A DNA stretch of 64,000 nt from Actinomycetes bacterium (GTDB taxonomy: Bacteria > Actinomycetota > Actinomycetes > Nanopelagicales > Nanopelagicaceae), in the NCBI GenBank assembly GCA_025354785.1, contig JANXME010000326.1, positions 1,506 to 65,505 on the forward strand, given 5' to 3'. Both the position numbers and the translations under genes were made by a program. This document shows positions 14,307-61,123 of this stretch, piece by piece. Numbering within the stretch: the first letter of the stretch is position 1; every line of letters starts with the position of its first letter. The notes under the pieces were generated by a model. It searched no databases and was not told the DNA's origin. It worked only from the letters and a program-made list of their open reading frames with translations.

Positions 14307-14588
14307 TTATAATTTTTGAGCATCAGCTGGAAATGTTTCGACAAACATTCCGAGCAATTTATTTTTACTTGCGCGCTTATTTCTAGCACGTTCCGCTCGT
14401 GAGCGCAGACGATACATACGAGCACACGCTTTACAATATTTCGTTTGACTTTTATCCTGTGCTTTCACATATCTTACTTTAAAGCATCCAGGTTCTTTGC
14501 AAATTATCTTGTAGCAATACAATCCAACATCGATTTTTTCAGGTTGCCCATTTTCATTTAGTTGGGTTGCAAATTTAACTTCATTCAT
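14307..14588 (-). CDS. zinc-ribbon protein with basic tail
   Basis: CYKIICKEPGC..KYCKAC followed by RMYRLRSRAERARNKRASK. Confidence 0.5.
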   Translation of the reverse strand: MNEVKFATQLNENGQPEKIDVGLYCYKIICKEPGCFKVRYVKAQDKSQTKYCKACARMYRLRSRAERARNKRASKNKLLGMFVETFPADAQKL

Positions 14589-14630: not shown

Positions 14631-15869
14631 TTAGTATACAAGTAGCTTCCCTTGTTTCTTGAGTAAATTATATAAAGAGTCACACAGATCGATATCCCGG
14701 TTCTCAGACACATACTTGATAAAATATTTACGAATGGTCTGTATTCGACGTGATGATAATGTTGCAGACACGCCGTGATACTCACCAATCTTCTTACTAT
14801 AATTAATGCATCTGTCTAGAGAAAAAGATTCGGCCCCACATGTCTGTTTAGGGTTTTTAATTTTGAGGTGCTCACATTTACGAGTATTCTTAAATCCAGA
14901 ACATAATTCAGAACATACTGAATCGGCTTTGAGTGAGCACTTGGAGCATATATCTTTGGATGCTACCGGGTCGAAAATGACATCTAATATAGCTCTAGCC
15001 TTGGTGTCAGTTGGTGAAGCTAGTGGGTCTGGATTCAACGGCAGCGCCGCATATGTACCAGAGATTATGATTTGCACCTCGGCTTCCAATTCTTGCTCTA
15101 CATATTGTTCTTCAATATTAAGTTCTTCAGTTGGAAGGTCATGTACGATATCTTCTTTACTATCGAACCGAGATTCAATGTGTACATCCGTCGAAAGACA
15201 TTTTGCACAAACATATGCAAATTTACGCTGCCAAATATTTGAGCAGGTCAGACATTTGCGATATTTATTGGCTTTATATGCGGAATTACCATCTGGCCAA
15301 CATTCGATTGTTAACTGACTGGTGCATTCTGGGCACACTTTGCTGTCAACTTCTCTGGAATCTGCTTTAGAGCGATGTCCACAATCATCGCACACTTGGA
15401 TCAAGTTGTGATTATATATCTTGTTAATTGCGTTACGTACGCCCATGATCCCGCGTTTTTTAAGCCAGTTTATCGGGTTGGCATTTGTTGGCCTCACTAT
15501 GCCTCCACCAACATCAGCTGTCTGACCAACCACTGCCCTAGTGGTGACCACGGTTCCAAACGCTTTAGCGGAAGGTAAATCCTTGAAAATGGTTTCCCAA
15601 AATATGGAGACCACATCGTCAAGATTTATTGAGAAGTTTGAGTAGTCATTATTACGTGAATAATAACGTTTACACTCTTTCTCGAACAAACGCTTAATAA
15701 CGCCTTGTCTGGCGGGGTTATTTATGGTGTATGCAGTAACTCCGGACACGAGGTCCATCATCTCCTGCATCGCAGTTGGATCTTGAATCTTATTTAGTAT
15801 CGATTGTTGCACTCGATTGACTATCAAGTCCGCTTGTTGATTGCTTATCCAACTTTTTGGTTGTGCCAT
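14631..15869 (-). CDS. multi-zinc-ribbon protein with C-terminal sigma-70 region-4-like HTH (putative transcription factor)
   Basis: Several CxxC pairs (CDDCGH, CPEC, CLTC, CAKC, CSKC); C-terminal IGEYHGVSATLSSRRIQTIRKYF resembles a region 4.2 HTH. Start uncertain (80-nt overlap upstream). Confidence 0.3.
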   Translation of the reverse strand: MAQPKSWISNQQADLIVNRVQQSILNKIQDPTAMQEMMDLVSGVTAYTINNPARQGVIKRLFEKECKRYYSRNNDYSNFSINLDDVVSIFWETIFKDLPSAKAFGTVVTTRAVVGQTADVGGGIVRPTNANPINWLKKRGIMGVRNAINKIYNHNLIQVCDDCGHRSKADSREVDSKVCPECTSQLTIECWPDGNSAYKANKYRKCLTCSNIWQRKFAYVCAKCLSTDVHIESRFDSKEDIVHDLPTEELNIEEQYVEQELEAEVQIIISGTYAALPLNPDPLASPTDTKARAILDVIFDPVASKDICSKCSLKADSVCSELCSGFKNTRKCEHLKIKNPKQTCGAESFSLDRCINYSKKIGEYHGVSATLSSRRIQTIRKYFIKYVSENRDIDLCDSLYNLLKKQGKLLVY

Positions 15870-16272
15870 TTTTGTTTGATTTACACTCGCGACACCGTTT
15901 AACTAAAAATGCATCAGCTAAGTGGATGGTCCGCTCACCACCACAGTCTACGCATTTAATTGCAAGTAGCGTGCCACCTAATTTCTCTGGATCTTGGGTA
16001 AATGAGCCCACAACCACCCATGGAAATTTGACGCAGACTTCTTTTTGTTTCTCTACATCTTTGAATACAGGAACCTTAGTCTTAGCTTTGGTTAGACGGA
16101 CTTCTGGATGTCCCTCCACATCAAACTGGGTCTTAATGGCCGCTTTCATTGCGGCTTTAGCCTGCTCTTTAACCAGCTTGGCTGCGTCCTTCAATTCCTT
16201 TTCGGTTTTGATTGGCTCCGGCTGCAGTGCGAGCGGATCAAACGGAACATCTTCAATTGTGAGCTTATTCAT
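15790..16272 (-). CDS. hypothetical protein with C-terminal zinc ribbon
   Basis: KCVDCGGERTIHLADAFLVKRCRECK is the same ribbon pattern as the C-terminus of 16800..18395. MNKLTIEDV start chosen. Confidence 0.5.
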   Translation of the reverse strand: MNKLTIEDVPFDPLALQPEPIKTEKELKDAAKLVKEQAKAAMKAAIKTQFDVEGHPEVRLTKAKTKVPVFKDVEKQKEVCVKFPWVVVGSFTQDPEKLGGTLLAIKCVDCGGERTIHLADAFLVKRCRECKSNKNGTTKKLDKQSTSGLDSQSSATIDTK

Positions 16273-16537
16273 ATATGTTATCATATCCGTAAGATAGAGG
16301 AAATAGTTGAAACCAAACATGTTCTTTAATGCGTGCTAATGCGTACTCTAGAGCAACCACAAATGATGGTTGCTTGAGTAATCTTAAATCATCTGGATGA
16401 CCCATCTCAATTGCCCTCAATCGATGAGCATCAGCGACATGTCCGTCTTCGAACACTCGTATTGACTCCAGAACAGTATGCAAACGCCATACCAATGGTA
16501 TACCAGCTTCGTTTACTATCAGATAGACTGTCGGCAC
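16265..16537 (-). CDS. hypothetical protein
   Basis: 90-aa co-directional ORF. Confidence 0.45.
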   Translation of the reverse strand: MPTVYLIVNEAGIPLVWRLHTVLESIRVFEDGHVADAHRLRAIEMGHPDDLRLLKQPSFVVALEYALARIKEHVWFQLFPLSYGYDNIYE

Positions 16538-16800
16538 CGCTTCCTTGGATCTGGGAGATTTAGTGTCTTTAGTGAAGAGTTGTACATGTCTGGACCAAAC
16601 AACGCTGATACAGGTGTCCAGCCTGTATATGAATACATTTGTGGCAGATTAACAAATGAGGCAACAAAACCAATAATGAAGACCCATTTTAATACACCCA
16701 ATATAAATATGAGTAGTCGGCCCCACCACATCACTGATGACTTAAACATCAGTGATATGAAAAAGATGCCAACACATCCAACCGCCACCAACCCTGACAT
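16519..16800 (-). CDS. small membrane protein
   Basis: 93 aa with three hydrophobic segments (VAVGCVGIFFISLMF, LLIFILGVLKWVFIIGFVASFV). Confidence 0.5.
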   Translation of the reverse strand: MSGLVAVGCVGIFFISLMFKSSVMWWGRLLIFILGVLKWVFIIGFVASFVNLPQMYSYTGWTPVSALFGPDMYNSSLKTLNLPDPRKRCRQSI

Positions 16801-18395
16801 TAAGAGTTCCCAATCATTCTTCGCTCTTTCGCACGTTTCCGACGAGCTTCTTTAGTGCACGCGAGACATTTCTTAACTTGATGAACATCTTGAGGATATA
16901 TAATTCTACCGCCGTGGCAGTCTTCGCACTGAATCATCACCATTGATGTGGGCTTGGAACGAGCTATAATCTTCATTTCATTGCCCTTTGTCAGGGCAAC
17001 AATGGCCAATTTGCCAGCCATACGTTCCGACTCTCGTTGAAATGCCTCATCATGAGTGCCACACGTATTGTGAGCAAATTCGTGTACGATTGTACTTAGA
17101 ACCTTTTCATCCAGCGCATCTTTGAAATCAAAACAATTTACATTAAATCCAATAACCCCAGTGGACCATCTGAAATGCGCCATTTTCTGCACGCCAGTGA
17201 AACTTTGTGGGCGCTTGAAAAACTCGATGCCGACATTCTTGCCTAGCATTTCTTGACCCAAGAAACAAACAAGTCTACGAAATGCTCCAGTTGGCTCTGC
17301 AATGGATTCAGGAACATATTCATCCATGAACTCATTTTCAATACTGCGTACTACAGTTGTTGCGTTGTGAATGTGATTTATAAGTATGTTGACCAAATGG
17401 TTACTAATCCCAGTAAGTTTTATGATGGAATACCCATTTTGCTGTGCGACATCATTGGCAGCCATGTCATGTGATACCAATGCTAGTTTTGATAATGGCC
17501 CATAAAGTTTAGTAGCCACCAGACGTCCCTCTTCATATGTTAGGGCAGCCATGGCTTCATCAACCCATTCATGCTTCAAGGCTCGGGCACTCATTTTCGG
17601 TAGTAATTTGGGTAAAACCATCATGCCAAGTGAGTTCAGATATTCGTCATCAATACTATCTCGATTGTCATTTAGTGGAATGCGTTGGCAAACATTAATA
17701 TGAAATCTAGTACTATGTTCCTGTACCGGAATACCCATCTCATAGATCCAGCCCAGTTTTTCACCCTTAGCTAGATTTAGAATCTCAACTGTTGTGTCGC
17801 CAGACACGTCTTTCTGCACACCATTGATAATAGATTGGGTCCTCAGTGTTGCGCTAAAATGGGTGCGTAAACGACGAGCTTTTACTTCTGAGTTATTTAC
17901 AAATAGTGTTATTCCATTGGGTGGAATAATTCTATTTAGGTATACCGCAGCCGCCTCTACATCTGTTTGAGTCCATTCCGCAACTTTTACAGAGACTTTC
18001 GTTCCAACAATTCGATCCGATTTGACTGTTTCACGGCCATCGGTAAACGTGGTCTTAAATCCGATTGTGTCAACTTCGGCCCACTCAGCTGCCGATATTA
18101 GTTCTTTTAGCCCTCGGCCTTTACGTCCCCGCTTGGTCACGCTATCTTGCTTATCGGTTAAGAACACTGTGGTGACCAATGAGATATCTTGAATACCAAT
18201 CTTAGAATTATCCTCCACTGACACAAATCCAGGTCGGAGTTGGACACGTACTTCAGTAACATCACTAGTGTCGAAAGTGTTGGAAATAGCTTCTCGAATT
18301 AGATCGGCAGGACGTCGACCTGCATTCATCCGTTTCCAACCATCGTTGGAGATAGAAAACCGTTCCACGCTCTTTTCTAGAATGTCATTGCTCAT
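16800..18395 (-). CDS. GHKL-type ATPase-like domain fused to an HExxH metallopeptidase motif and a zinc ribbon
   Basis: Bergerat-like ADLIREAISNTFDT, VEDNSKIG, GRKGRGLK; C-terminal VHEFAHNTCGTHDEAF; terminal CEDCHGGR..CLAC. ATG 18395 preferred (track start 18428 is TTG). Confidence 0.45.
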   Translation of the reverse strand: MSNDILEKSVERFSISNDGWKRMNAGRRPADLIREAISNTFDTSDVTEVRVQLRPGFVSVEDNSKIGIQDISLVTTVFLTDKQDSVTKRGRKGRGLKELISAAEWAEVDTIGFKTTFTDGRETVKSDRIVGTKVSVKVAEWTQTDVEAAAVYLNRIIPPNGITLFVNNSEVKARRLRTHFSATLRTQSIINGVQKDVSGDTTVEILNLAKGEKLGWIYEMGIPVQEHSTRFHINVCQRIPLNDNRDSIDDEYLNSLGMMVLPKLLPKMSARALKHEWVDEAMAALTYEEGRLVATKLYGPLSKLALVSHDMAANDVAQQNGYSIIKLTGISNHLVNILINHIHNATTVVRSIENEFMDEYVPESIAEPTGAFRRLVCFLGQEMLGKNVGIEFFKRPQSFTGVQKMAHFRWSTGVIGFNVNCFDFKDALDEKVLSTIVHEFAHNTCGTHDEAFQRESERMAGKLAIVALTKGNEMKIIARSKPTSMVMIQCEDCHGGRIIYPQDVHQVKKCLACTKEARRKRAKERRMIGNS

Positions 18396-18573
18396 CAGTT
18401 GACTCGTCGAATATAAATGCGTGCGCAAATCCCAACACCAAACCTGCTACGATGCAAACTAAAAGTCCAGTAAAGCTGGTGAGATGACCATGCATTCTAC
18501 CGACTGTAACCAAAGTGGCTACCAACATGCTGCTTAAAATGATTGAGACAAGCTTCTTTGTGTAAGTATTCAT
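18385..18573 (-). CDS. small membrane protein
   Basis: MNTYTKK start; two TM helices (LVSIILSSMLVATLVTV, GLLVCIVAGLVLGFAHAFIF). Confidence 0.45.
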   Translation of the reverse strand: MNTYTKKLVSIILSSMLVATLVTVGRMHGHLTSFTGLLVCIVAGLVLGFAHAFIFDESTDEQ

Positions 18574-18574
18574 A

Positions 18575-19285
18575 TTAATATACTGGGAATGGGAATGGCG
18601 GGTCCATTTCGACTGCACTACGTATATCATCTACTAATCGCTGATATGTTTTGGGAGGCACATTATATCTCTTTTTAGAATATTTTACCAATCTATATAT
18701 TGATTCCATTGGAAATTGGTGTCGATGTATTATCAGATTATTTTTGAATAGATCAATAATAGACATTGGGTTCATGGTCAAAACACCATTATTCACCGCA
18801 AATTGTGTTACAGTGAAATCGAATGAATCGATTACATGTTCAACACTCTCGTACCACACCAATTTCACCAATTGAATAGGTAGCCGCGATTTGCCTGGGT
18901 GCTCAAAATTAACCAATCGTATGGCTGCAGATCGCGCCTTAATATCTTCGCGGGATATGTCGGGTTTATATCCCTTTAATGCCCAAGCATCATCTGCATC
19001 AGGTGGGTTGCAAAGCAATTCGTAAGTATCAATAAACGCTGCGCCTGACGTAAAGAATATATCGATATCTGTTGGTTTACGATTACGATCAATCAAAGAT
19101 GTGATAAAGCTGCCAGCCAGAACAGCGCCATCTGGCAAATATTTTGTCAAACTATCTAACTCTTTATTAAAGATATTTCGTGGTCCAGCCAGGTCTTTCA
19201 GTGCAACACTGTGATACATAGTGCTGGTTAAAGAATAATGCGCGGGACAGTTGTGTTTTAAATAATACGGATCAATAATGGTCAT
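18575..19285 (-). CDS. Pol-beta-superfamily nucleotidyltransferase-like protein
   Basis: hG[GS]x9-13DxD pattern LAGSFITSLIDRNRKPTDIDIFF, downstream acidic DSFDF; adjacent to RNA ligase. Confidence 0.45.
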   Translation of the reverse strand: MTIIDPYYLKHNCPAHYSLTSTMYHSVALKDLAGPRNIFNKELDSLTKYLPDGAVLAGSFITSLIDRNRKPTDIDIFFTSGAAFIDTYELLCNPPDADDAWALKGYKPDISREDIKARSAAIRLVNFEHPGKSRLPIQLVKLVWYESVEHVIDSFDFTVTQFAVNNGVLTMNPMSIIDLFKNNLIIHRHQFPMESIYRLVKYSKKRYNVPPKTYQRLVDDIRSAVEMDPPFPFPVY

Positions 19286-19295
19286 GGACCCTAGA

Positions 19296-20399
19296 TTACG
19301 CAGTATAATCGATATCTTGTAGTTCCAACATTGACATTAGACTCTTGATATTCATGTCTGCCAGATAAGCTTTAATGCTGGCGGCTCTCTTCGATCGGAC
19401 AGAAAACAAAGCTCCAGAGCATCGCGTCTTGACCGCCTCTAAGGCAAATGTCTTTTGGTCCGGAAAATCTTCGATCTGTAAATATGCAGTCTCAAGTTCA
19501 TGAATTAATTTCTTGAGCGCAGTGCCTACTTTTTCAAATTGAGGTGCCCACTCCGGAAAATAGGTTAGAAACTCTGGAACTTCTCCGGAACGCATAATCT
19601 CAACAATTCGACGCATCCCGAAACCATCTTTTAAATGATGGATGGCCACATATCCAGGGTGCTTCATTTTGTTGCGATTAAAATCACTATCCAGAACTAC
19701 ATATCCCTCTTGGGACATTGGGTCGATTGTGTCAAAAGACGATTCGATGGCGGCCACGCTGTTTAGCGCGAAAGCCCGGACCGCTGGGTATCCTGTTGCG
19801 ACGGCGCGCGGGCCATATACTGATAGCTCCTGTCCAGAAAATCTATCGCGGACGCCAATTAATTTTAATTGACAGTCCATGTGTCGCACCACAATTCGAT
19901 TGTAGGGAGTCATTAATTCAAACATATAATTAATGTCCACGTCTGAATGTGGGGGAACAGACAATTTTTGCTTCTGGAATGTATCCCAAAACAAACTTGC
20001 AAAAGTCATGTTTGGCAAGTCGTTTACATTACCGCCAGCATCTGGCGATCCGGAGGTTGCAACATTCCAAATCCCATTGTACCAATATAAAGTACACAAT
20101 GAGCCATCAAGCTTTTCTTGGACCATTGCGGTGTTCCAGTTGATCACTGAGGCATGCCCTTCGCCAAAATTGAAAAATTTATCGAATGGGCGACAGATAA
20201 CACGCCAATTATCGGATTCATCTAAGATGAGTCCACGACATTCACGAACCAATGGTTCGGCCATTGGAGAATCTATCTGATTATATTTGAACAGAAGCAG
20301 ATTGTCGAATTTAGGATGATGGCGTGCCACAATAGCATATTTCTCAGTCAGCTGGGCGGGCGTAGCCCCAGACATAAGCGCTTCTTGTATTTTGAGCAT
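19296..20399 (-). CDS. ATP-dependent RNA ligase, Rnl1-like
   Basis: Motif I EKLDGSL; FELMTPYNRIVV as in T4 Rnl1-type ligases; size 367 aa. Confidence 0.65.
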   Translation of the reverse strand: MLKIQEALMSGATPAQLTEKYAIVARHHPKFDNLLLFKYNQIDSPMAEPLVRECRGLILDESDNWRVICRPFDKFFNFGEGHASVINWNTAMVQEKLDGSLCTLYWYNGIWNVATSGSPDAGGNVNDLPNMTFASLFWDTFQKQKLSVPPHSDVDINYMFELMTPYNRIVVRHMDCQLKLIGVRDRFSGQELSVYGPRAVATGYPAVRAFALNSVAAIESSFDTIDPMSQEGYVVLDSDFNRNKMKHPGYVAIHHLKDGFGMRRIVEIMRSGEVPEFLTYFPEWAPQFEKVGTALKKLIHELETAYLQIEDFPDQKTFALEAVKTRCSGALFSVRSKRAASIKAYLADMNIKSLMSMLELQDIDYTA

Positions 20400-34673: not shown

Positions 34674-35231
34674 ATGTCCACCACATATAATAGTAGAAGA
34701 TCCCTGAATAAATGTGTTAAATGTTCTAAACAATTAAATGACATTACTCAAGCTAGATGCCAGACATGCCGTAATTTTGAGCAAGAAAATACAAAATCTT
34801 ATCAGTCAAAGCGTATTCTTGCACATTTATGCCGGAGTTGTTGCAAGTCCAACAATAATGGGAAAGTTCATTGTGATATTTGCGGTTTTAAAGCAAGAGT
34901 CCGTGCCCGTAAGCGCGCCATAGAATTAAAAATTATGATATTAAATGCATATGGTGGACCACAGTGCGCTTGTAGAGGGTGCAGTTGGCATAATCAACGC
35001 TGTGTCTGTAGTCACATAGACGTCTTAACTATAGACCATATCGACAATAGTGGCGCCAAACATAGGAGAGAGATGACTGGCGGAGATCGCGTCGGTGGCG
35101 GCGATACCACCTATCGATGGCTTAAGAAGAATAATTACCCATCTGGATATCAAGTTCTATGCTGGAATTGTAATTGGATCAAATATAAACATTTAGTCTC
35201 TCCACAAAATCTGGATTCTCATTTTCATTAG
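34674..35231 (+). CDS. HNH endonuclease, family A (free-standing, opposite strand)
   Basis: N-terminal Zn ribbons, LNAYGG, TIDHIDNSGAKHRRE, LCWNCNW. 53-nt convergent overlap with the phosphoesterase gene. Confidence 0.8.
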   Translation: MSTTYNSRRSLNKCVKCSKQLNDITQARCQTCRNFEQENTKSYQSKRILAHLCRSCCKSNNNGKVHCDICGFKARVRARKRAIELKIMILNAYGGPQCACRGCSWHNQRCVCSHIDVLTIDHIDNSGAKHRREMTGGDRVGGGDTTYRWLKKNNYPSGYQVLCWNCNWIKYKHLVSPQNLDSHFH

Positions 35232-35916
35232 GATATCCCATTGGATTGGCAAAAACGCGCGTGCTGCCAATCTTAATATCGATTGGACAGTGTGTATGCC
35301 CATGTATCCACAATTTTGGCTTGCGAGCAACCATCAAATCTTCCACGTCACACACGAAAAATCGATTTAATGAAGACTTTTGAAATTTTGGATGAATACT
35401 CTTTGAAGATGGAAGATGGTGTGTGACCACCACATCATTTTCACATAAATTATCTTGTAGACCTTGAACAGTTAATTTATTTTCTTCGTAGACCCATGGA
35501 TCAAATCCATCGATTACATGAAAGTCGTTCATCTGCTGTGCGTGCAGACGATTGTTCTTCTCTTGACGAAACCAGAGAGTGCCTCCAAGAAAACGCTGAC
35601 CATCAATTACCTTTACGCCACCGTGACGTAATACATGGAGATTGGTGAGATTATACTCAATTGCATTGAGGTGTCTCTCAGCAGTTCCAACATCGGTATT
35701 GTAATACTCATGATTACCGCAAACCATGAGTACTTTGTTATATTTAGAACAAAATTCAGACAGAATGTCTTGGGACCAATAGTAGTCGCGCAAAACAGTG
35801 ACGTCGCCGGCTAAAACTAATATGTCTACCCCGCTTGGGTCAAGACTTTTTAAGAAAGAAATTCCATGGTCCCTGTGAAATTCTAGGTGGAGATCACTCA
35901 TAATGGCCAGTTTCAT
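35179..35916 (-). CDS. calcineurin-like metallophosphoesterase
   Basis: MSDLHLEF, LAGDV, GNHEYY, THHLP, GHTHCP in canonical order. Confidence 0.85.
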   Translation of the reverse strand: MKLAIMSDLHLEFHRDHGISFLKSLDPSGVDILVLAGDVTVLRDYYWSQDILSEFCSKYNKVLMVCGNHEYYNTDVGTAERHLNAIEYNLTNLHVLRHGGVKVIDGQRFLGGTLWFRQEKNNRLHAQQMNDFHVIDGFDPWVYEENKLTVQGLQDNLCENDVVVTHHLPSSKSIHPKFQKSSLNRFFVCDVEDLMVARKPKLWIHGHTHCPIDIKIGSTRVFANPMGYPNENENPDFVERLNVYI

Positions 35917-44497: not shown

Positions 44498-44893
44498 TTA
44501 ATATAGTTTAAGGTGTCCTGTCACCTGGTTTATCTTCTCTTCTGTGTCCGGGCCAATGGCTAGGCATGTGCGGGTTGGTACGCCGTTGAACTCAGTCTTA
44601 CCTGCGTCGGTAATCATATGCACCTCAAGACCACTAGTTTCGGCCTGCTCATAAATCTCCATTAATTCTGCCTCTGAGCTGACTTGAAGACATATTTTGG
44701 TAAATGCGCCGCCAAACATCCACTCTATTTCATTTTTACTAAAGTTGCCTTCATATTGGCCCGTTCCTAGACTATCCCAGGCTGTGGTTAGCCGTTTCAC
44801 TAAGAATGAAATAGATGCATGAGCACCTTGAGCAACACACTTACCTTTTCTCATTTTTAGATCGGCGCGCATCACTAGCACTTGTTTGATCAT
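44498..44893 (-). CDS. pth2: peptidyl-tRNA hydrolase, PTH2 (archaeal/eukaryotic) type
   Basis: KQVLVMRADLKMRKGKCVAQGAHAS, ITDAGKTEF, TCLAIGPDTEEKINQVTGHLKLY. ATG 44893 (or GTG 44899 in a GTGA overlap). Confidence 0.85.
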   Translation of the reverse strand: MIKQVLVMRADLKMRKGKCVAQGAHASISFLVKRLTTAWDSLGTGQYEGNFSKNEIEWMFGGAFTKICLQVSSEAELMEIYEQAETSGLEVHMITDAGKTEFNGVPTRTCLAIGPDTEEKINQVTGHLKLY

Positions 44894-44895
44894 GC

Positions 44896-47502
44896 TCACC
44901 TTAATAGTTGTAATAGTGCAGCCAGTTCGACCGGCGCCATCTTAGCAACACCAGCACATGTGTTGTTTACCTGATTGCAATTTGCTCCTACGTTAGGGTG
45001 AATACCATCACGAAGGTCTGCCAACGTTAATACCGAGTTAACATCTGCTAAACGCACTTTCTGCCCCGCAGTGACCCTTGCAGCTACCAGCCGGCGCAAC
45101 TCGGTATTATACTGTTGTGCAAGTACGGCCCGATCTACATTGTTCGGTGCTACCAACACTGACGACTGAGGTGGGATTGTTTGCACCACAATTTTTACGT
45201 TCGGTAGTGTTTGTTGAATGGTGGTGATTAGAACATCCTGTCGACCTGCAACACTCGTGCCAGTCTCGGCTGTCCACCATGCAATATCATTAGTTCCGGC
45301 CATGACGACCACAACATCTGGTTGATAGGTATTCAGCCACCCTACAACTTGCGCACTAATATCTCCAATTGTCCAACCTGGATGTCCCTCGTGGCGTGTG
45401 GAACATGGATCGTATGTATTTGCCTGAGACCCTACAGGTACGATATTATATCCAGCTGCGATTGCCTGTGTGGTAAGTGCGCAGCGCCATGACCATTCTT
45501 CTTGTGTTATCGAGTCACCAAGGTCCATGAGCTTAATGGCTGCGCCCGTGACCGGTGCACCCGCATCGACAACCCCGGCGTCTGGAACCACGGTGCCAGC
45601 GTCCTTTGCCACAACTCCTGCATCTGTCACTGGTGGCGGGGGTGTGCCCGCATCCGGTGTTTGAGTGCCCGCGCCCCACGAAATTGAGTCAACATATATA
45701 ATACCAGACAGGGCTGCGTTTGGCTGCAGTTCCACACCAAGGCTTTGCAACACACCTGGAACAGTGGGCAGAGTGAGTGTGAACGTATTCCATCCGACAA
45801 TCAGTGCTGACTGTGGGAACCAGTTAGAGTTCCATTTCCATGAAGTGGTTGCGTCTTCCTGAGCAAACACCTGTAATGAAGTGAGGGCCGTGACCACAGG
45901 GATATAGACATGGTATGTAATCGTCGTGCCGCGCGGGACTGCTGGGTTGGCTACGATGAAGCTCTGATTGGCAGATGAGGAGCCATTGAATGTTCCAGCC
46001 AGTGACCGTAAGCCAGCAAATGCCTTGGCCGTACTGGTACCAAGCGTGCCACCCCCGCCAGTTAGAGTAAACCCCTGCAGATTGCCCGCAGTCTCGAAGT
46101 TGCATTGTGCAGGATCCAAAACAACTCCACCTGCGTCTGGTGTGCCAGCATCCTTAGTGCCTGCGTCAGGTGACCCAGCATCAACAACTATCGTGCCTGC
46201 ATCCTTTATACCCGCATCCACAACCGTTCCAGCGTCAGGTGTTATACACACACAAGTACACACGGCACCTGCATCTGGCGACCCGGCATCAACAATGCCT
46301 GCGTCAGGCACAGGGGCGCTAGATGGTAGATTCATGCCTCCACTAGCATAAAATGTACCAACATTGACTTTCAGGAAATCGTTGTCAACTTCTTGACGGC
46401 TCTGGCATCCCTCGCCCGCTCCGAACAACAGTGAAATCATGCCACTGCTTACAAATTTTTGTAGATGCGTGGTGCCACCGTTGCCGAAGAAATATTCTGA
46501 ACGATTGTCTTTGTATCCACTACCTATGCTACCATTGTAGCATACATCCTTACTAAAGGAGTTGCCAATCGGCACCTGCCAAAGCACCCAACGCTTGGAT
46601 GCCTTTACGTTCCAGAGGCGCATCCATTCAGCATAACGATTGAAGCTTCTGGTGTTTATGGCAGCTGTATCAGCTGTGTCCCACCAACGATTCTCTCCTC
46701 TTACAAGCGTGTAGTAGTTAGAATCTCTGTCAAGAGGGTCGCCCACTAATATATCATATGTATCACCAGTTATATTAGCGACTAGCCCCAGTGGCGCTAA
46801 GAAGTTGTATACATTGTCAACAGCTGGCTGTAGCGGATCGGTCACATTGAAATGTATGATGTCTAACCCAGTTGCCCAGCCAGAAATGTGCATACCCAAT
46901 ATTACGTTTGTTGCACCAACAGACTTGCGCATCTGCAAAAATGCTAACCCCCATCCTGCAGCCGTATTGGGTAGCCCGGCTAGCTCTGGTAGACCAGTGG
47001 ATGCGATTGCGGCTGGAGCAGTTGGTACTACGGCTGACTCTTGTAGATATGCATATCCATCTGGTTCAAGCATAACTAGGACCGGTCTGCCAAATGTCTT
47101 TGCTTGCTGCATTAGCAGCTTGAAATCGCCAAAATATTCGGCCATTGCTGTGGGCGATTGTACCTTTTGGTAGAATCCGGTATTAGCGGGCGGGATGTCA
47201 TACATTTCATAGTACGAGATAGCTGGAATGTATCCGTTGGCGTCTGCGGACTTGAAGAAGGACTGAGCGAAGGCGCCGTCACGTGGGCCACCGCCCCAAT
47301 TGGTGGCCCAGGAGTATGTCAGATAGATATATTCCAGATCCCACTGGACACCGCTATTGTGCATCCAGGTTGTGGACGCTGAGTCGTTGTTGTTGAATAG
47401 CCCGATAGATAACTTTTGCGGCATTGGTGCCGGCACAGACCCAGATGGGCCTGCCCATGCATTAACAGTAAGAAGGAGGCAGATTAAGCAGCTTAATTTC
47501 AT
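44896..47502 (-). CDS. secreted modular protein: N-terminal domain, DAG-rich linkers, beta-sandwich (CBM-like) domain, C-terminal SGNH/GDSL hydrolase
   Basis: Signal peptide MKLSCLICLLLTVNAWA; linkers PDAGIVDAGSPDAG..DAGTKDAGTPDAGG; SGNH blocks LGDSITQ, MAGTNDI, DGIHPN. Confidence 0.75.
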   Translation of the reverse strand: MKLSCLICLLLTVNAWAGPSGSVPAPMPQKLSIGLFNNNDSASTTWMHNSGVQWDLEYIYLTYSWATNWGGGPRDGAFAQSFFKSADANGYIPAISYYEMYDIPPANTGFYQKVQSPTAMAEYFGDFKLLMQQAKTFGRPVLVMLEPDGYAYLQESAVVPTAPAAIASTGLPELAGLPNTAAGWGLAFLQMRKSVGATNVILGMHISGWATGLDIIHFNVTDPLQPAVDNVYNFLAPLGLVANITGDTYDILVGDPLDRDSNYYTLVRGENRWWDTADTAAINTRSFNRYAEWMRLWNVKASKRWVLWQVPIGNSFSKDVCYNGSIGSGYKDNRSEYFFGNGGTTHLQKFVSSGMISLLFGAGEGCQSRQEVDNDFLKVNVGTFYASGGMNLPSSAPVPDAGIVDAGSPDAGAVCTCVCITPDAGTVVDAGIKDAGTIVVDAGSPDAGTKDAGTPDAGGVVLDPAQCNFETAGNLQGFTLTGGGGTLGTSTAKAFAGLRSLAGTFNGSSSANQSFIVANPAVPRGTTITYHVYIPVVTALTSLQVFAQEDATTSWKWNSNWFPQSALIVGWNTFTLTLPTVPGVLQSLGVELQPNAALSGIIYVDSISWGAGTQTPDAGTPPPPVTDAGVVAKDAGTVVPDAGVVDAGAPVTGAAIKLMDLGDSITQEEWSWRCALTTQAIAAGYNIVPVGSQANTYDPCSTRHEGHPGWTIGDISAQVVGWLNTYQPDVVVVMAGTNDIAWWTAETGTSVAGRQDVLITTIQQTLPNVKIVVQTIPPQSSVLVAPNNVDRAVLAQQYNTELRRLVAARVTAGQKVRLADVNSVLTLADLRDGIHPNVGANCNQVNNTCAGVAKMAPVELAALLQLLR

Positions 47503-48167: not shown

Positions 48168-48525
48168 TTAGATCTGTCAACAACTGCTTTGCAATCTGTT
48201 TAGGAGCCAAACCCGCATAGTTGTCCGACTTGTTTAGGAAATCTATTACCATCTCGATTTTTGACAGAGTATAGTATATGCTATTGGATGCGATAGGACG
48301 CCACTGCCAATATTTTTTCAATATTCCGTCTATCATGTGTCCCATATAAACATAATAAAGAACTGAATCTATTAGTATGGTGAAATGGTCTGCATGGAAG
48401 CCGGAAGCATTAGCCATCCAGAAATGTCTCTTTTCATAAGACAACAAACTAAAAGCCTTAGATTCTGAACGGTTGATTTGTGTATGATAGTCAGTAGCCA
48501 CGATGGCTTTTACCAACCTTTTCAA
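48148..48525 (-). CDS. hypothetical protein (paralogue of 47874..48167)
   Basis: See neighbour; tandem duplication. Confidence 0.5.
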   Translation of the reverse strand: MKRLVKAIVATDYHTQINRSESKAFSLLSYEKRHFWMANASGFHADHFTILIDSVLYYVYMGHMIDGILKKYWQWRPIASNSIYYTLSKIEMVIDFLNKSDNYAGLAPKQIAKQLLTDLNDVQTR

Positions 48526-49034
48526 CCATTGCCATCAGCTGGCGGATATTCTTCGGCCTATATTCGTTTACATCCACACCAACATTAATGATCGGACCCT
48601 TACGATTAAACGCCTCGTGAACGTGACCATGTAGATGAACATCTGCCTTCTCGTTTGGCAGAAATGCCATATCTGGCTCATGGCGTAGGTAAAGTTTTAC
48701 TCCATCGACAGTCAAAAAAAGCTCAGTGTTGATTGAGGCCCATTCAGCATTCTCAATTTGAGATAGGATGGTCACACCGTTATGCTTCATGTCATGATTG
48801 CCCAAAACAATATGCTTAACGCCATTCAGGCGCGCCCAGATGCCTGGAATGAGCCCCTTGTCACCCATGGCAAAATCGCCCAAATGATAAATAGTGTCTT
48901 GTGGACTAACAACCTCATTCCAATTCTTAACTAACTCTTCGGTCATGTGGGCGCAGTCTTTAAACGGCCTACTCGAATATTGTATAATATTGTTATGGTT
49001 GAAAGTGCGTATCCGAAGTAAAGTATGTACTCAA
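48491..49034 (-). pseudogene. small metallophosphoesterase interrupted by a 1-nt frameshift near its 5' end
   Basis: Track ORF (to 48946) has HLGDF, GNHD, GHVH but lacks the first DxH motif. Upstream, one frame encodes (TTG)STYFTSDTHFQP-stop and the main frame continues FNHNNIIQYSSRPFKDCAHMTEEL. The shift lies in CTTTC at 49001-49005. Confidence 0.65.
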
Positions 49035-50076: not shown

Positions 50077-50330
50077 TCTTCAGAACATATAGGGGTGGGC
50101 CAGTAATCATTCGCGCCAGAATCATGTCTAAATGCGGTGGTAACGTCGCATATATTACATCCAGCATACATGCCTGAGAAATATATGGTTGGCTCCACTA
50201 GCATGCTTTCTGATTTATACGGATCGCGATACTCCGCTTTCGGCTGGTTAAATACCCCTGGGTGCTTTGTGTTGAAATCCATCAGTGTCCGCCACAATTG
50301 GTTCTGCGCCATCGAAAAAAACCTCCACAC
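49947..50330 (-). CDS. hypothetical protein
   Basis: 127-aa ORF overlapping the Thg1-like 3' end; start uncertain (50312 or 50282). Confidence 0.35.
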   Translation of the reverse strand: MWRFFSMAQNQLWRTLMDFNTKHPGVFNQPKAEYRDPYKSESMLVEPTIYFSGMYAGCNICDVTTAFRHDSGANDYWPTPICSEECLGALLANQAESTPTLPEISCLESSVPDGTTTTTMVADILNV

Positions 50331-51117
50331 GATTCACAACACGTGCCAGCGGCGGCATATTAATTTGAGCCACAACATGGCGTTCAATCTCTAGATTGGG
50401 ATTTACGCGTGCTGCGTGTTTTGGCGGTAGTGCCTCCAATTCTTCTTGGGTAAATTTTCCAGTCATCTTAATACGGCGCACATATGCACCACGTTTGAAA
50501 AACGTCGGATAGTCAGACCAGTTCACACCCTTTTTATGGAGCATCTCGATCATCTCTGTCCGACCCTGGTTCGCCATTTCTAAATGGGAGTAATAGTGGC
50601 GTGTGGCCATAGATACACTATTTTTGGTGGCATCTTGCTCACGCCACAAAATGGCATTAACAGCTTCATCCTTGTTAGGCACATTCCAAACACGACAATC
50701 GAATGTCGGAAGAGATTCTGCCTTTTCTGGAATGTACATAGCCAAATTTTTGTTGAAAAAGGCGCTTGCTTGTGAAGCGAGATTGCTTACGATCTTTTGA
50801 ATTTTACCATCAAACCATACCTGTTCACGGAAATCATGCGCATATATCAGTAGACTGATCTCGTCGGATTGAGTGTAGCCCACCAACGCATTAGTTTCCT
50901 CTACTAGATGGATGGTGGTGTCGGCCATCAAACTTGACATACGGCGATCGTATGGACGTTTTAGTCCGCGAGTAAATTTACTAAAACTACGTCCATCTAG
51001 ACGGGCAATGAGCGGCAATAGAGGCATAAGTTTGCGACCAGCCTCAACCTGCTCGTAAGACTTCATCCTTATTGCCACATCTGTATTGTCTTTGCTCATA
51101 AATTTAATTATTTCCAT
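50248..51117 (-). CDS. Thg1-like protein (tRNA-His guanylyltransferase family, 3'-5' nucleotidyltransferase)
   Basis: LIARLDGRSFSKFTRGLKRPYDRRM and VGYTQSDEISLLI match the Thg1/TLP palm-domain carboxylate motifs. Confidence 0.8.
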   Translation of the reverse strand: MEIIKFMSKDNTDVAIRMKSYEQVEAGRKLMPLLPLIARLDGRSFSKFTRGLKRPYDRRMSSLMADTTIHLVEETNALVGYTQSDEISLLIYAHDFREQVWFDGKIQKIVSNLASQASAFFNKNLAMYIPEKAESLPTFDCRVWNVPNKDEAVNAILWREQDATKNSVSMATRHYYSHLEMANQGRTEMIEMLHKKGVNWSDYPTFFKRGAYVRRIKMTGKFTQEELEALPPKHAARVNPNLEIERHVVAQINMPPLARVVNRVEVFFDGAEPIVADTDGFQHKAPRGI

Positions 51118-51966: not shown

Positions 51967-52279
51967 TCCGCATCTCCTTGATCAATTGTTCTCCACGTGT
52001 TCGATTTTTGCAATTTCGACACCAGAAACGGTCGGGTAGTGGTAGACCCCGTTCTCCCTTTGGGGCACGACTCCCACGTAATTCATGGCACCAAGTTGTA
52101 TCACCCTGAGCTAAACATTGCGCCGTATCTTTTAACAGTTTGAATAATTCTTCGCAACGTTCTAAATCAGCCGATGTCATCTGGGTGGCGGATGGCTCGG
52201 TAGGTTGGAAGAATTGGAACATTGTCATCACTGAGCCTTTGATATTTAAAATTAACAATCTTGCCAATAAGTTTCTCAT
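51959..52279 (-). CDS. hypothetical protein (start uncertain, possibly 52180)
   Basis: Track ORF overlaps the ligase 3' end by 113 nt; the internal ATG at 52180 gives a 14-nt overlap. Confidence 0.4.
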   Translation of the reverse strand: MRNLLARLLILNIKGSVMTMFQFFQPTEPSATQMTSADLERCEELFKLLKDTAQCLAQGDTTWCHELRGSRAPKGERGLPLPDRFWCRNCKNRTRGEQLIKEMRNG

Positions 52280-53471
52280 CGTCCCATAACTCTTGTCGCA
52301 ATGCTTTGGTCAGCCCTTCGCCAGTGCCCATGCCGAATACTGGACCAGTTGGCTTGCCTTTGACAAGTAAACGGCATTCAAGTTTGCCGAGAGATCCGAC
52401 CAACCAGCCTTCTCCCTCAACCTTGCCAACGATCATTGCTTCTGCGTCTTCAAATGGCTTGATTTTGGTGATGTCGGAAGTTTTCTTATTAGTTGGTGCC
52501 TTGTCCAGACGACGGATAATAGCTCCGTCACAACCAAGGGTAGTCACGAAATCACCAGCTTCTTTGTCAAGGAATTCTTGGGTTGGGTCGATCACCACCC
52601 GCGAGCTCACAATCCTTAATACACCATGACTGAACGAATGTGTACTATGAGACTGCATCATGTTTCTTAAATGTTGTAGCCGATCTTCATAAATAGTATG
52701 CGGGTCGTCATATTCATCACTGGCGGCACAATCAAACATCACATATACCAATAAACCTTTTTCCGGTTCGCGACCATCATCCGCATGGAATAATTTCTGA
52801 ACCGCCTGGAAGTCCATGCGGCCATAACTGTCAAACACTACAACTTCACCATCAATCGTAGTGCCTGACTGCAGTTTGAGACGTGTGATTTCCGCCTTGA
52901 TCGACTGAAAGCCTTTCCATTCTTTGCCAGTCCTGGATAAAAGAGTGACTGCGCCGCCTTCACCAATGCGAGCGATCGTACGTCCTCCATCCATTTTGGG
53001 CTGTAATGCCCATCGGCCCTTAAGAGATTTAAGCTCTTTAAAAGGCTTGGCGAGCGGAATCGAAAATAGAGCAATCGTGCCCGGCATAACCTTGTTTACA
53101 TCCTTGGCGCCGACGCTCAGGCGCAGATCTTGCTTGATAATACGCTCGGTCCACTTCACTTCTACCGAACTACACAATCCGAGAAAGGAAGCGATGGCAC
53201 TTTTAGCCGCATTACCAGTCAGCGTACGATCCGACAAGGGGACGAGCAAATGTTCTTCCAAATATTTGAACCAATCGTCCTCATCCATGGAAGCTACCTG
53301 GGCCGGTGCTGGCGATGGTACCTGCTTAATACCAAAGGTGATCGCTGGAGAAAGAGCATAGTTCAACAACTTACGCATCTCGGGTGAATCACCCTTTTTC
53401 ATCGCTTCAAGACGCGCATTACCCAACGGAGCGGCCTCAAATTTTTCTAGCTGTTTGACTAATTCATTCAT
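52167..53471 (-). CDS. ATP-dependent DNA ligase
   Basis: Motif I KMDGGR, III DGEVVVFD, IV DGAIIRR, V ITKIKP. ATG 53471 forms an ATGA overlap with the upstream stop. Confidence 0.85.
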   Translation of the reverse strand: MNELVKQLEKFEAAPLGNARLEAMKKGDSPEMRKLLNYALSPAITFGIKQVPSPAPAQVASMDEDDWFKYLEEHLLVPLSDRTLTGNAAKSAIASFLGLCSSVEVKWTERIIKQDLRLSVGAKDVNKVMPGTIALFSIPLAKPFKELKSLKGRWALQPKMDGGRTIARIGEGGAVTLLSRTGKEWKGFQSIKAEITRLKLQSGTTIDGEVVVFDSYGRMDFQAVQKLFHADDGREPEKGLLVYVMFDCAASDEYDDPHTIYEDRLQHLRNMMQSHSTHSFSHGVLRIVSSRVVIDPTQEFLDKEAGDFVTTLGCDGAIIRRLDKAPTNKKTSDITKIKPFEDAEAMIVGKVEGEGWLVGSLGKLECRLLVKGKPTGPVFGMGTGEGLTKALRQELWDDEKLIGKIVNFKYQRLSDDNVPILPTYRAIRHPDDIG

Positions 53472-53896
53472 AATTCTCCAGATTGGGGACAATCCACTAC
53501 ATGTCCGCACAAAGCGGCTCGATCTTCCCATCTCCAATTTCTCGTAAGATGGTCACATTCACAAACTAACTTAGTTGGCTTAGTTGCGCCATCGGCATAC
53601 ACTATATGACATTCATCGCTTAATACGTAGTACATAACTGCCTTCTGGCGATAGTGGTCGATCGTTATTTGCACGATTTGTGCCATGATATCGTCGGCAC
53701 ACATAATTCTAACTGGAATTACCCTTTCTAAGAAAGTTTCTCCTTCATGTTCCCAAACACCCTTTCCAGGAGTAAAGATGGTAAGTCCACCCGTAAGCTT
53801 TTGCACTTTAGCGTCCCAGTTCTTATGATGTTTCGTGCGAATGGGCTTGATTGTGTCGCCATACATCGTTGGCACTAATATCTCATAAAGCTTCAT
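53468..53896 (-). CDS. hypothetical protein
   Basis: MKLYEILVPT start in an ATGA overlap; C-terminal Cys/His cluster. Confidence 0.5.
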   Translation of the reverse strand: MKLYEILVPTMYGDTIKPIRTKHHKNWDAKVQKLTGGLTIFTPGKGVWEHEGETFLERVIPVRIMCADDIMAQIVQITIDHYRQKAVMYYVLSDECHIVYADGATKPTKLVCECDHLTRNWRWEDRAALCGHVVDCPQSGEL

Positions 53897-61121: not shown

Positions 61122-61123
61122 TA

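Follow-up and report, generated by a model that had tools for sequence, protein, structure and literature searches.

Do four closely packed genes on a phage contig, in which an ATPase-peptidase fusion and a small membrane peptide lie next to two enzymes of RNA-end chemistry, encode one machinery or several? The DNA analysed here (the window) is a 64-kb stretch of a 65.5-kb contig that comes from a large uncultured phage and is probably part of a larger phage genome. An earlier reading made from the letters alone (the sequence-only reading) had taken the four genes as a single block, in which an Rnl1-type RNA ligase would rely on the nucleotidyltransferase or the ATPase-peptidase for healing or sensing. 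We regard it as the somewhat likelier case that genes A to D are neighbours with separate functions and not a single system. An ORF check of the window confirmed the four open reading frames, all on the minus strand, and a fifth gene (F) follows them:

19296..20399, minus strand: gene D, 367 aa, Rnl1-family RNA ligase
18575..19285, minus strand: gene C, 236 aa, Pol-beta superfamily nucleotidyltransferase of the Pfam Gad2 family
18385..18573, minus strand: gene B, 62-aa peptide with two hydrophobic helices
16800..18395, minus strand: gene A, 531 aa counted from the ATG used by homologues
16519..16800, minus strand: gene F, 93-aa membrane protein directly after gene A

The longest frame of gene A begins at a TTG (18428), and that of gene B spans 18385-18630, its homologues beginning at the Met at 18573, which gives 62 aa. 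Transcription runs in the order D-C-B-A, with the two-TM peptide B upstream of the fusion and a second small membrane protein, F, downstream; the peptide read next to the fusion does exist, but precedes the fusion rather than coming after it. The tight coupling seen at first reading is likewise real, with an overlap of 11 nt between B and A, spacers of 1 nt (C/B) and 10 nt (D/C), and a 1-nt overlap between the stop of gene A and the ATG of gene F (TAATG). However, the whole one-strand window is equally dense in genes, so the tight spacing of A to D is weak evidence for a common function.

The domain calls themselves were correct: motifs, profiles and models agree on a GHKL ATPase, HExxH peptidase and zinc ribbon in A, a 2-TM peptide in B, a Pol-beta nucleotidyltransferase in C and an Rnl1 ligase in D. 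Gene A, the most interesting of the four as a putative stand-alone ATP-driven zinc protease from a huge phage family, can be divided as follows:

17931..18395, minus strand: residues 1-155, GHKL (Bergerat-fold) ATP-binding domain (invariant columns, HATPase_c matches, Foldseek)
17652..17930, minus strand: residues 156-248, beta-rich transducer-like domain (AF2 secondary structure, Foldseek)
17241..17651, minus strand: residues 249-385, mainly helical middle domain (AF2 secondary structure, pLDDT >88 throughout)
16956..17240, minus strand: residues 386-480, Wss1/WLM-type zincin (WLM matches, conserved H438-E-F-A-H442-x5-H448)
16800..16955, minus strand: residues 481-531 and stop, CxxC-x16-CxxC zinc ribbon and basic helix (motif), KEARRKRAKERR

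The ATP-binding domain carries an N-box (E35/N39/D42), a G1 box (D62..G67) and a G2 box (G90-RKGRG95) and lid. The transducer-like domain, whose boundaries were read off the secondary structure of the AF2 model, holds the invariant motifs YEMGIP and QRIPLNDNR(245)D, with E219, G221, P223, P240 and R245 invariant in a 31-member alignment. The middle domain has no Pfam, PHROG or PDB sequence match, the zincin site reads HEFAHNTCGTH at 438 (HEFAHx5H), and the zinc ribbon CEDC-x16-CLAC lies at residue 490. The GHKL and HExxHx5H residues vary little or not at all in the same alignment: H438, E439, H442 and H448 are conserved at a level of at least 90%, and HExxH has been lost in a single member (P0049). 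Judged from these residues, the zincin of gene A appears catalytically intact and looks active. Across 89 family loci HExxHx4-6H is retained in 80 and the motif is missing in 8-9, suggesting that proteolysis is dispensable in some family members.

Among the 31 members, Pfam HATPase_c_3 is matched by 14, HATPase_c by 13 and WLM by 15 (best E 1.9e-6), while the NCBIfam sacsin ATP-binding domain is found in 19 and PADLOC TmtA in 7. The window protein alone scores below threshold against both WLM (E 5e-4, 20.6 bits, threshold 26 bits) and the sacsin domain (19.8 bits, threshold 50 bits), so these two assignments stand at family level. The family profile matches Wss1p (5xbn, E 4e-4) and an S. pombe WLM protease (5jig, E 4e-3) in the PDB. 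The AF2 model (pLDDT 90.4) has its best solved-structure matches in TRAP1/Hsp90, a viral topoisomerase II ATPase and MORC3 (Foldseek, E down to 8e-14), and the alignments to the Hsp90/TRAP1 N+M, topoisomerase II and MORC ATPase modules extend past the ATP-binding domain; viral fold matches include phage rIIA-type GHKL proteins (E about 1e-9) and ‘HSP90 family’ proteins. Conserved residues, HATPase_c and WLM matches and fold matches taken together, the GHKL and HExxH resemblance is genuine and not spurious.

The family of gene A is very large. Clustering at 50% identity gives 1034 clusters (E<=1e-30), with a typical length of 470-500 aa that spans the GHKL domain to the zincin, and almost all members come from uncultured sources. 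The zinc ribbon and basic tail are a clade-specific add-on: a C-terminal ribbon occurs in only 8 of the 89 family loci, and the same ribbon/basic-helix cassette stands at the C-terminus of the neighbouring proteins at 15790-16320 and 14307-14588. Relatives are present in 193 IMG/VR loci, 80 of which were retrieved for neighbourhood comparison, and most sit among small early-type phage genes. A clade of bacterial chromosomal relatives also exists, in one case adjoining toxin-antitoxin genes.

This neighbourhood comparison bears directly on the question of a single block. In a single RNA-damage response module, gene A would sense or process, gene C would heal in place of Pnkp, gene D would seal, and gene B would be the membrane link. 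The genes are indeed co-directional with overlapping or abutting frames, and the closest lineage (loci L002, L003/L004 and L114) shows the gene order D-C-(small ORF)-A throughout, at 44-73% fusion identity. No Pnkp is visible either, as had been noted from the letters: AAA_33 and PNK3P match nothing on the 65.5-kb contig, and a Walker-A scan of the window returned only RecA-like, MoxR-like and one chance motif. However, collinearity in the closest lineage continues through the ribonucleotide reductase and past it, so this synteny does not single out the four genes, and in L003/L004 the position of gene B is taken by an unrelated 83-aa non-membrane ORF. Beyond this lineage the synteny is lost. 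More than 60 other non-redundant fusion loci are without C and D, no neighbour family is common to more than 4 of 68 non-redundant fusion loci, and 17 loci of gene C relatives have neither ligase nor fusion within 6-8 kb. Near-complete phage genomes that carry the fusion (234-459 kb, including some 89-91% complete) have no Rnl1 and/or no nucleotidyltransferase genome-wide, and Rnl1 lies close to the fusion in only one other case (L049/L071), where the two are separated by a sigma factor, an AAA ATPase and unrelated ORFs and there is no nucleotidyltransferase. The proposals of one four-gene block and of a healing or sensing partner for Rnl1 thus fail outside the immediate lineage, and we consider the single module highly improbable, although the persistence of the D-C-B-A order, with frames that overlap or nearly abut, at fusion identities as low as 44% would allow for a functional link within this lineage. 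As an interpretation of the locus, the sequence-only reading is partly supported.

If the genes are separate, what do C and D do? Gene D is predicted to be an ordinary, complete Rnl1 RNA ligase with all catalytic motifs present (I, K96-LDGS; III, FEL at 160; IV, EGYV at 231; V, KMK at 244). It matches Pfam RNA_lig_T4_1 (E 3.8e-13, 50.2 bits, above the 28.3-bit threshold) and phrog_562 (E 5e-46), aligns to the T4 Rnl1 structures 2c5u/5tt6 (E 1.7e-10), where motifs I, III, IV and V all line up, and has relatives in 733 phage records. It resembles T4 Rnl1 (gp63, RnlA) in length, in all nucleotidyl-transfer motifs and in its PHROG, whereas its score against the NCBIfam equivalog is 65 bits, under the 242-bit cut-off, and T4 Rnl1 works with Pnkp while gene D has none adjacent or in the 64-kb window. 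Since the searches turned up no polynucleotide kinase, the available DNA does not encode a full T4-type repair pathway. Elsewhere in the window there are 8 tRNA genes, an Rnl2-like ligase (PF09414), a Thg1-like enzyme, Pth2 (PTH2) and two metallophosphoesterase (Metallophos) proteins, and most plausibly C and D are part of a dispersed toolkit of the phage for tRNA maintenance and repair.

Gene C carries the motifs G58-S-x13-D73-I-D75 and D153-SFD156-FT, in which G58, D73, D75, D153 and D156 are invariant among homologues; the nucleotidyltransferase motif was thus rightly recognised, with a spacing of x13 and not x10 (GS-x13-DID). It matches phrog_4400 (E 6e-14) and phrog_1614 ‘nucleotidyltransferase’ (E 7.5e-9). 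In Foldseek, its AF2 model (pLDDT 89.5) best matches class II CCA-adding enzymes and poly(A) polymerase (E 2.5e-6 over about 215 aligned columns), the fold being closest to the head and neck of the class II CCA-adding enzymes, whose motif B its DFT motif resembles; unlike them, gene C is without the (tRNA-binding) body and tail domains and without the Pfam PolyA_pol signature. It has been reported that jumbo phages couple RNA ligases with end-rebuilding nucleotidyltransferases (PMC7824862), and that RlaP, a small Pol-beta nucleotidyltransferase encoded beside an RNA ligase, extends damaged RNA 3′ ends by 1-2 nucleotides before ligation (PMC12776372, PMC7824862). With RlaP as the working model, gene C may rebuild RNA 3′ ends and gene D would then seal the nicks. 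Gene C is not RlaP itself, as PF10127 gives no match even at E 10, and its ligase adjacency is limited to one phage lineage.

The family assignment of gene C points in another direction. Precomputed hits place Pfam PF26128 (Gad2) on gene C and on 23 of 23 homologues, and Gad2 is a phage protein of nucleotidyltransferase fold needed to overcome Gabija (bioRxiv 10.1101/2023.05.01.538930), with which gene C shares the catalytic motifs. Given the anti-Gabija protein family and the ligase adjacency confined to one lineage, gene C may act on a non-RNA substrate. It could be a Gad2-like anti-defence enzyme directed at a nucleotide-sensing system, of the Gabija type or another, and have no connection with ligase D, as its relatives, which stand alone among small early genes with no RNA ligases, would suggest; however, it has 236 aa against the 400 aa of Gad2, tblastn with gene C found no SPbeta-like Bacillus phage, and its fold is nearest to tRNA 3′-end enzymes. 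We hold this to be possible though rather unlikely, and it would not conflict with the best explanation of A and D.

That best explanation, which we hold with moderate confidence, takes gene A to be a zinc protease that works alone and is gated by ATP, and C and D to be separate members of the tRNA toolkit. By homology, the GHKL and transducer-like domains of gene A would bind and hydrolyse ATP, and the protein would dimerise into a clamp as Hsp90, MutL, MORC and Tiamat do. The helical middle domain may present the substrate, which the zincin, with its conserved residues, would cut, and the zinc ribbon and basic tail probably anchor the protein to nucleic acid, comparable to the zinc-binding domain of SPRTN. 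The most likely target would be a host or competitor protein, possibly nucleic-acid-bound, in which case gene A would serve host takeover or anti-defence.

Wss1/WLM and SPRTN (SprT) are DNA-protein crosslink proteases. Their small zincin, like that of gene A, combines HExxH with a third His five residues further along, and in SPRTN, as in the lineage of gene A, a zinc-binding module and a basic region come after the protease, a likeness limited to the 8 of 89 family loci with the ribbon. In contrast to gene A, they lack a GHKL ATPase; their regulation comes from ubiquitin, SUMO or DNA binding and not from ATP. T4 rIIA and other phage GHKL proteins, thought to serve phage-host conflict, also combine an N-terminal GHKL ATPase with a variable C-terminal region (PMC7824862), but rIIA has no zincin, a different C-terminal half and a partner, rIIB, with no counterpart for gene A, which has no sequence-level match to the rIIA PHROGs. 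ArdC, which overcomes a host restriction system, is a mobile-element protein that likewise joins a nucleic-acid-binding module to a Spartan-like metalloprotease; it is plasmid-borne, however, with a ssDNA-binding N-domain, no ATPase and a gluzincin site (third ligand Glu) (PMC7213743).

In sequence comparison gene A is nearest to sacsin/Tiamat-type ATPases, its GHKL domain being closest to the sacsin and TmtA models. Like gene A, Tiamat (TmtA) is a single-gene unit that unites an N-terminal sacsin-like GHKL ATPase and a Wss1-like metalloprotease fold in one polypeptide, and Tiamat-like variants exchange the nuclease for peptidase effectors (bioRxiv 10.64898/2026.09.30.754977). Together with the bacterial chromosomal relatives, once beside toxin-antitoxin genes, this could make gene A a phage-carried immune or exclusion gene, in which a compact Tiamat-like GHL sensor and a protease effector would shield the infected cell from competing phages or mobile elements, and not a weapon aimed at the host. 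However, Tiamat is about 1500 aa long, contains TPR-like repeats, ‘Fold B’ and a PD-(D/E)xK nuclease, and no longer has HExxH in its Wss1-like fold, whereas gene A is phage-encoded, shorter, with a beta-rich transducer-like domain, an intact HExxHx5H, no assignable DUF3684/TPR region and no nuclease. The TmtA similarity is confined to about 80 residues within the ATP-binding domain, gene A is located among small early-type genes in most loci, and its abundance in viral contigs (193 IMG/VR loci) suits a core phage-side function as well as it suits exclusion. We estimate the immune role to be improbable.

The Hsp90/TRAP1 matches across the N and M domains and the phage ‘HSP90 family’ proteins would also fit a chaperone-like protein or maturation factor that serves proteins of the phage itself, in which a processing protease is joined to an Hsp90-type clamp and which plays no part in conflict, and metallopeptidase-linked chaperone pairs serve virion assembly in jumbo phages (PMC7824862). 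On the other hand, any GHL ATPase is expected to resemble Hsp90 in Foldseek, the zincin belongs to the Wss1/SprT type, which is known to act on DNA-linked substrates, the bacterial chromosomal homologues lack any virion context, and in the window and its relatives gene A stands beside nucleotide-metabolism and replication-type genes and not structural ones. We therefore regard a chaperone role as quite improbable, and favour the ATP-gated protease with a host or competitor target.

The two genes that flank the fusion, B and F, are small membrane proteins specific to the lineage. Gene F is not common to the wider gene A family, and gene B is absent outside L002 (62% identity) and L114, where it is conserved; gene F is kept after the fusion in L002, L114 and L009/L011, and is weak and displaced in L003/L004.

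Of the four genes A to D, A is the one of value: its family joins an ATPase of the GHL type to a Wss1-type protease that seems to be active. The four genes and the gene that follows A all lie on the minus strand, as do nearly all genes of the window, whose 64 kb come from contig C128 (65.5 kb), the largest in a metagenome bin of 1.95 Mb:

19296-20399, minus strand: gene D, RNA ligase, a 367-aa ORF
18575-19285, minus strand: gene C, nucleotidyltransferase (NTase), a 236-aa ORF
18385-18630 (longest ORF), minus strand: gene B, start set by homologues at Met 18573, giving a 62-aa peptide with two transmembrane segments
16800-18428 (longest ORF), minus strand: gene A, GHKL-zincin fusion, start set by homologues at ATG 18395, giving 531 aa
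16519-16800, minus strand: gene F, membrane protein of 93 aa, with its start and the stop of A sharing TAATG

D and C are separated by 10 nt and C and B by 1 nt, and the reading frames of B and A share 11 nt. Such packing carries little weight as evidence for a unit, because it is the rule across the whole window. A scan of the 14-23 kb interval for sigma-70 promoters and terminators gave none above shuffled expectation, and by this measure no operon could be split or defined.

The AlphaFold2 model of A (pLDDT 90.4, pTM 0.73) suggests the following division, with all boundaries placed from the secondary structure of the model:

Residues 1-155: GHKL domain
Residues 156-248: beta-rich transducer-like domain
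Residues 249-385: helical middle domain
Residues 386-480: zincin
Residues 481-531: zinc ribbon (CEDC-x16-CLAC) and basic helix

In an alignment of 31 homologues, the catalytic glutamate E35 and the Mg-binding asparagine N39 of the N-box (EAISNTFD) are invariant in all 31 sequences, and D42 of the same box is invariant or at least 90% conserved, as are the transducer-like motifs YEMGIP and QRIPLNDNR. G67 of the G1 box is invariant and D62 at least 90% conserved, with a spacing one residue longer than DxGxG, and the G2 box (G90-RKGRG95) matches GxxGxG with both G90 and G95 invariant. When the members were scanned singly against Pfam, HATPase_c_3 was found in 14 of the 31 and HATPase_c in 13. Foldseek aligned the model of A with TRAP1/Hsp90 (E 8e-14), the ATPase domain of ASFV topoisomerase II (5e-9) and MORC3 (2e-8), and the family profile also matches MutL and topoisomerase VI-B in the PDB. 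The model and these matches show a Bergerat fold with a second domain of the transducer type behind it, as in the GHL subgroup.

The protease half carries the zincin signature H438-EFA-H442-x5-H448, in which each residue is at least 90% conserved among the 31 aligned members, and HExxHx4-6H is retained by 80 of 89 fetched fusion ORFs. The matches of single sequences are weak, and the assignment of the fusion was settled at the family level. Pfam WLM matches A alone at E 5e-4 (20.6 bits, under the gathering score of 26) and 15 of the 31 members scanned singly, at best with E 1.9e-6; against the PDB, A alone reaches Wss1p at E 0.015, and the family profile reaches it at E 4e-4 together with the S. 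pombe WLM protease. Proteases of the SPRTN type are switched on by DNA bound through a zinc-binding domain; A ends in a zinc ribbon and basic tail. The ribbon is a local addition; only 8 of the 89 family loci carry one at the C-terminus. The description of A as a GHKL ATPase with an HExxH peptidase and a zinc ribbon, originally read from the sequence, is borne out by the family alignment, the profiles and the AlphaFold2/Foldseek comparison, in which A adopts a GHL-type fold. The same CxxC-x16-CxxC ribbon with a basic tail closes three otherwise unrelated proteins of the window, A itself (16803-16955) and two neighbours (14307-14588 and 15790-16320, all minus strand), and the tail of the 176-aa protein at 15790-16320 also matches the C-termini of fusion homologues at two other loci (L005, L010).

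A is a member of a very large, mainly phage-borne family of GHL ATPases with an effector domain, similar in this respect to Tiamat. A word-indexed search with A found 87 homologues, and HMMER, run exhaustively over 1.84 billion representatives, gave 1034 clusters (50% identity) at E<=1e-30 and 1546 at E<=1e-10, most of them 470-500 aa long and aligned with the profile all the way from GHKL domain to zincin. The 193 fusion loci in IMG/VR lie on contigs between 5 and 459 kb long. BLAST of A and of a divergent homologue (P0087) against 50,697 deposited phage records matched only the uncultured 485-kb phage LR745208.1, and therefore no cultured model phage there has a BLAST-level relative of A; at the DNA level the 3.6-kb four-gene block has no similarity to deposited phages. 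PHROGs has no family for the fusion, and 2 of the 31 members, both divergent, reach phrog_6077. Over 1000 sequence clusters, almost all from uncultured large phages, encode a fusion that has no Pfam family.

A bacterial clade of the fusion occupies a conserved chromosomal site in two assemblies, in both of which the fusion is followed by a highly acidic protein of about 100 aa with Pro/Glu/Trp repeats (L006, 9432-9773; L125, 9429-9722) and a CCG-domain Fe-S protein. On Methanothrix-labelled contigs the fusion adjoins a RuvB-like ATPase, and likewise on a virus-like contig (L007). In some phages (L044, 7483-8862; L041, 8460-9965) a second GHKL-like protein with the N-box ELVQNAKDA directly adjoins the fusion homologue, and these may be tandem paralogues.

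We found no paper on a phage GHKL-WLM fusion, and the nearest published description is that of Tiamat, which combines a sacsin-type GHL ATPase with a Wss1-like fold without HExxH and a nuclease; Tiamat-like variants have peptidases (bioRxiv 10.64898/2026.09.30.754977). The NCBIfam sacsin ATP-binding domain (NF047352) matches A at E 8e-4 (19.8 bits, cut-off 50) and 19 of the 31 members, at best with E 6e-7, and the PADLOC TmtA profile matches A at E 2e-3 and 7 of the 31 members, at best with E 2.4e-6. Tiamat (TmtA) ends in a PD-(D/E)xK nuclease (NOV_C/DUF3883), and its long middle region is of the DUF3684/TPR kind; A has 531 aa, ends in the zincin, zinc ribbon and basic helix, and matched no nuclease family. 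Membership in rIIA was also considered. Among viral models, the model of A matched uncharacterised phage proteins and, through its GHKL part, rIIA proteins; the similarity is one of fold at the GHKL level, no rIIA PHROG matches A, and its neighbours are small membrane proteins unrelated to rIIB in Pfam and PHROG searches.

To our knowledge, ATP-dependent proteases such as FtsH, Lon and Clp use AAA+ motors, and a Wss1-type zincin driven by a GHKL clamp would couple ATP to proteolysis by another route. It is conceivable, if on balance improbable, that the phage GHKL-Wss1 fusions form a new class of ATP-gated protease, in which a clamp of the Hsp90/MORC style shuts around a host protein bound to nucleic acid (e.g., a nuclease of a defence system, a nucleoid protein or a trapped topoisomerase) and the built-in zincin then cuts this protein, and that they are the active relatives from or beside which the dead Wss1-like fold of Tiamat/sacsin ATPases arose. 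The fusion offers a concrete handle on these Tiamat/sacsin-type ATPases, whose Wss1-like fold is catalytically dead.

The sequence-only reading had taken the four genes as one block, in which the NTase or the ATPase-peptidase may supply a healing or sensing step different from that of Pnkp, and synteny in relatives was its test. Rnl1, NTase, small ORF and fusion follow each other in this order in three relatives that form the immediate lineage of the window, namely L002 (fusion 73% identical), L003/L004 (48%) and L114 (44%), where collinearity runs several genes on, to a class II-like ribonucleotide reductase and beyond; in L003/L004 an unrelated ORF stands in place of B. Relatives with fusions 37-39% identical keep the downstream genes and have neither Rnl1 nor NTase upstream. 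A survey of same-strand ORFs within 3.5 kb of the fusion at 89 loci (68 groups at 70% identity) found no neighbour family common to more than 4 of the groups and none that recurs beyond the immediate lineage, and the small ORFs directly after the fusion are unrelated across clades, except for membrane protein F in a few. Near relatives of C, at 15 IMG/VR loci and on two further contigs, there is no ligase and no fusion, and in cultured phages C-like genes lie among small genes of no assigned function.

Beyond this lineage, Rnl1 was seen near a fusion in one case (L049/L071): the fusion there is 26% identical, the roughly 4 kb up to Rnl1 contain genes for a sigma factor and an AAA ATPase besides unrelated ORFs, and an NTase is absent. 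The 258-aa ORF before Rnl1 in L049 was examined as a candidate and is not an NTase. One such case is close to chance expectation, by a rough estimate rather than a computed test. Genome-wide, a 234-kb phage with a fusion (89% complete) has neither Rnl1 nor NTase, a 247-kb phage (91% complete) lacks Rnl1 and, for the NTase, shows no more than a weak and distant match, and a 459-kb phage has Rnl1 and no NTase. Since the association with C and D is gone in the wider loci and in near-complete genomes, synteny is lost outside the immediate lineage and the single-system reading is not supported. Hence the four genes should not be propagated in annotation as an "RNA repair operon".

For gene C, the assignment to Pol-beta NTases stands, and the motif spacing, first read as GSx10DID, is GS-x13-DID. 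G58, D73, D75, D153 and D156 are invariant in an alignment of its homologues, and C matches phrog_4400 and phrog_1614. Precomputed Pfam annotation places PF26128 (Gad2) on C and on 23 of 23 homologues; tblastn with C found no SPbeta-like phage. Gad2 is a 400-aa phage protein with an NTase fold that is needed to overcome Gabija (bioRxiv 10.1101/2023.05.01.538930). RlaP, an NTase known to accompany RNA ligases (PMC7824862, PMC12776372), was rejected as an identity for C, since PF10127 matched nothing anywhere in the assembly at E <= 10 and did not come up in hmmscan at E <= 0.1.

In the PDB, neither sequence nor profile searches with C rose above noise. Foldseek of its model (pLDDT 89.5), the check proposed together with that of A, found as best match the head and neck of class II CCA-adding enzymes and poly(A) polymerase (E 2.5e-6 over some 215 columns), with a TM-score against the CCA-adding enzyme of 0.57 on the query and 0.35 on the target, a third of which is covered. 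C carries D73-I-D75 and D153-SFDFT, that is, a DxD and a motif-B-like DFT, and DSFDFT resembles motif B of these enzymes. Class II CCA-adding enzymes (PF01743) have about 400 aa with a tRNA-binding body and tail, whereas C has 236 aa without body and tail, and in Pfam PF01743 (PolyA_pol) does not match C. In annotation, C should be labelled a putative Gad2-family enzyme with a CCA-enzyme-like fold, and not a Pnkp substitute.

Gene D is an ordinary, standard Rnl1, as first read: it matches Pfam RNA_lig_T4_1 (PF09511) with 50.2 bits against a threshold of 28.3, phrog_562 at E 5e-46 and T4 Rnl1 structures at E 1.7e-10. Its K96-LDGS, FEL160, EGYV231 and KMK244 (motifs I, III, IV and V) align with T4 K99, E159, E227 and K240/K242. 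Against the T4 RnlA equivalog TIGR02308 it scores below the cut-off (65.3 bits, cut-off 242); D is a member of the Rnl1 family and not a T4 orthologue. Relatives of D, many of them next to a polynucleotide kinase, occur in 733 phage records. The window also holds 8 tRNA genes, tRNA-Lys(UUU) among them, and the following:

60165-61214, minus strand: Rnl2-like RNA ligase (Pfam RNA_ligase PF09414, E 2.6e-11)
52167-53537, minus strand: ATP-dependent DNA ligase
50248-51117, minus strand: Thg1-like protein of the tRNA-His guanylyltransferase family (E 8e-32)
48491-48946, minus strand: calcineurin-like metallophosphoesterase
44498-44899, minus strand: Pth2, peptidyl-tRNA hydrolase (E 3e-33)
35179-35916, minus strand: calcineurin-like metallophosphoesterase

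The PF09414 match means that the phage has both Rnl1- and Rnl2-type ligases. Thg1 is a 3'-5' polymerase of the type known for tRNA 5'-end repair; in Vibrio phage P018-4 a Thg1 gene lies about 3 kb from a relative of C. As had been noted, no Pnkp, the partner of Rnl1 in T4-type tRNA repair, is visible: AAA_33 and PNK3P match neither C128 nor the compositionally similar contigs, a Walker-A scan of the window ORFs found no kinase-type P-loop, and AAA_33 matches in related big phages are uninformative. A 5'-kinase is thus missing from the DNA at hand, which is an incomplete phage genome, so that its absence is not proven, and the two metallophosphoesterases could supply a 3'-end healing or phosphatase step only. 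C and D appear to be parts of a dispersed tRNA toolkit, and it is a reasonable idea that they would act by putative fill-and-seal on nicks with 5'-P/3'-OH ends.

The phage probably extends beyond C128, since relatives reach 174-253 kb and four contigs of the same bin (C49, C132, C281 and C254) carry its tetranucleotide signature (r 0.84-0.93) with similar G+C; these probably belong to the same large phage as well and were binned together with a bacterial genome. Gene F is kept after the fusion in L002, L114 and a further related locus, L009/L011, with the common motif GWTP.S..FG, and small membrane proteins on both sides of the fusion (B upstream, F downstream) are seen in this lineage only. 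A 412-aa protein with many CxxC pairs and no family match (14631-15869, minus strand) is conserved in L002 (86%) and L009/L011 (39%), where it separates the fusion from the ribonucleotide reductase. The ribonucleotide reductase of L009 (12110-15139) contains an intein with a LAGLIDADG endonuclease, and the copy in the window is free of it.
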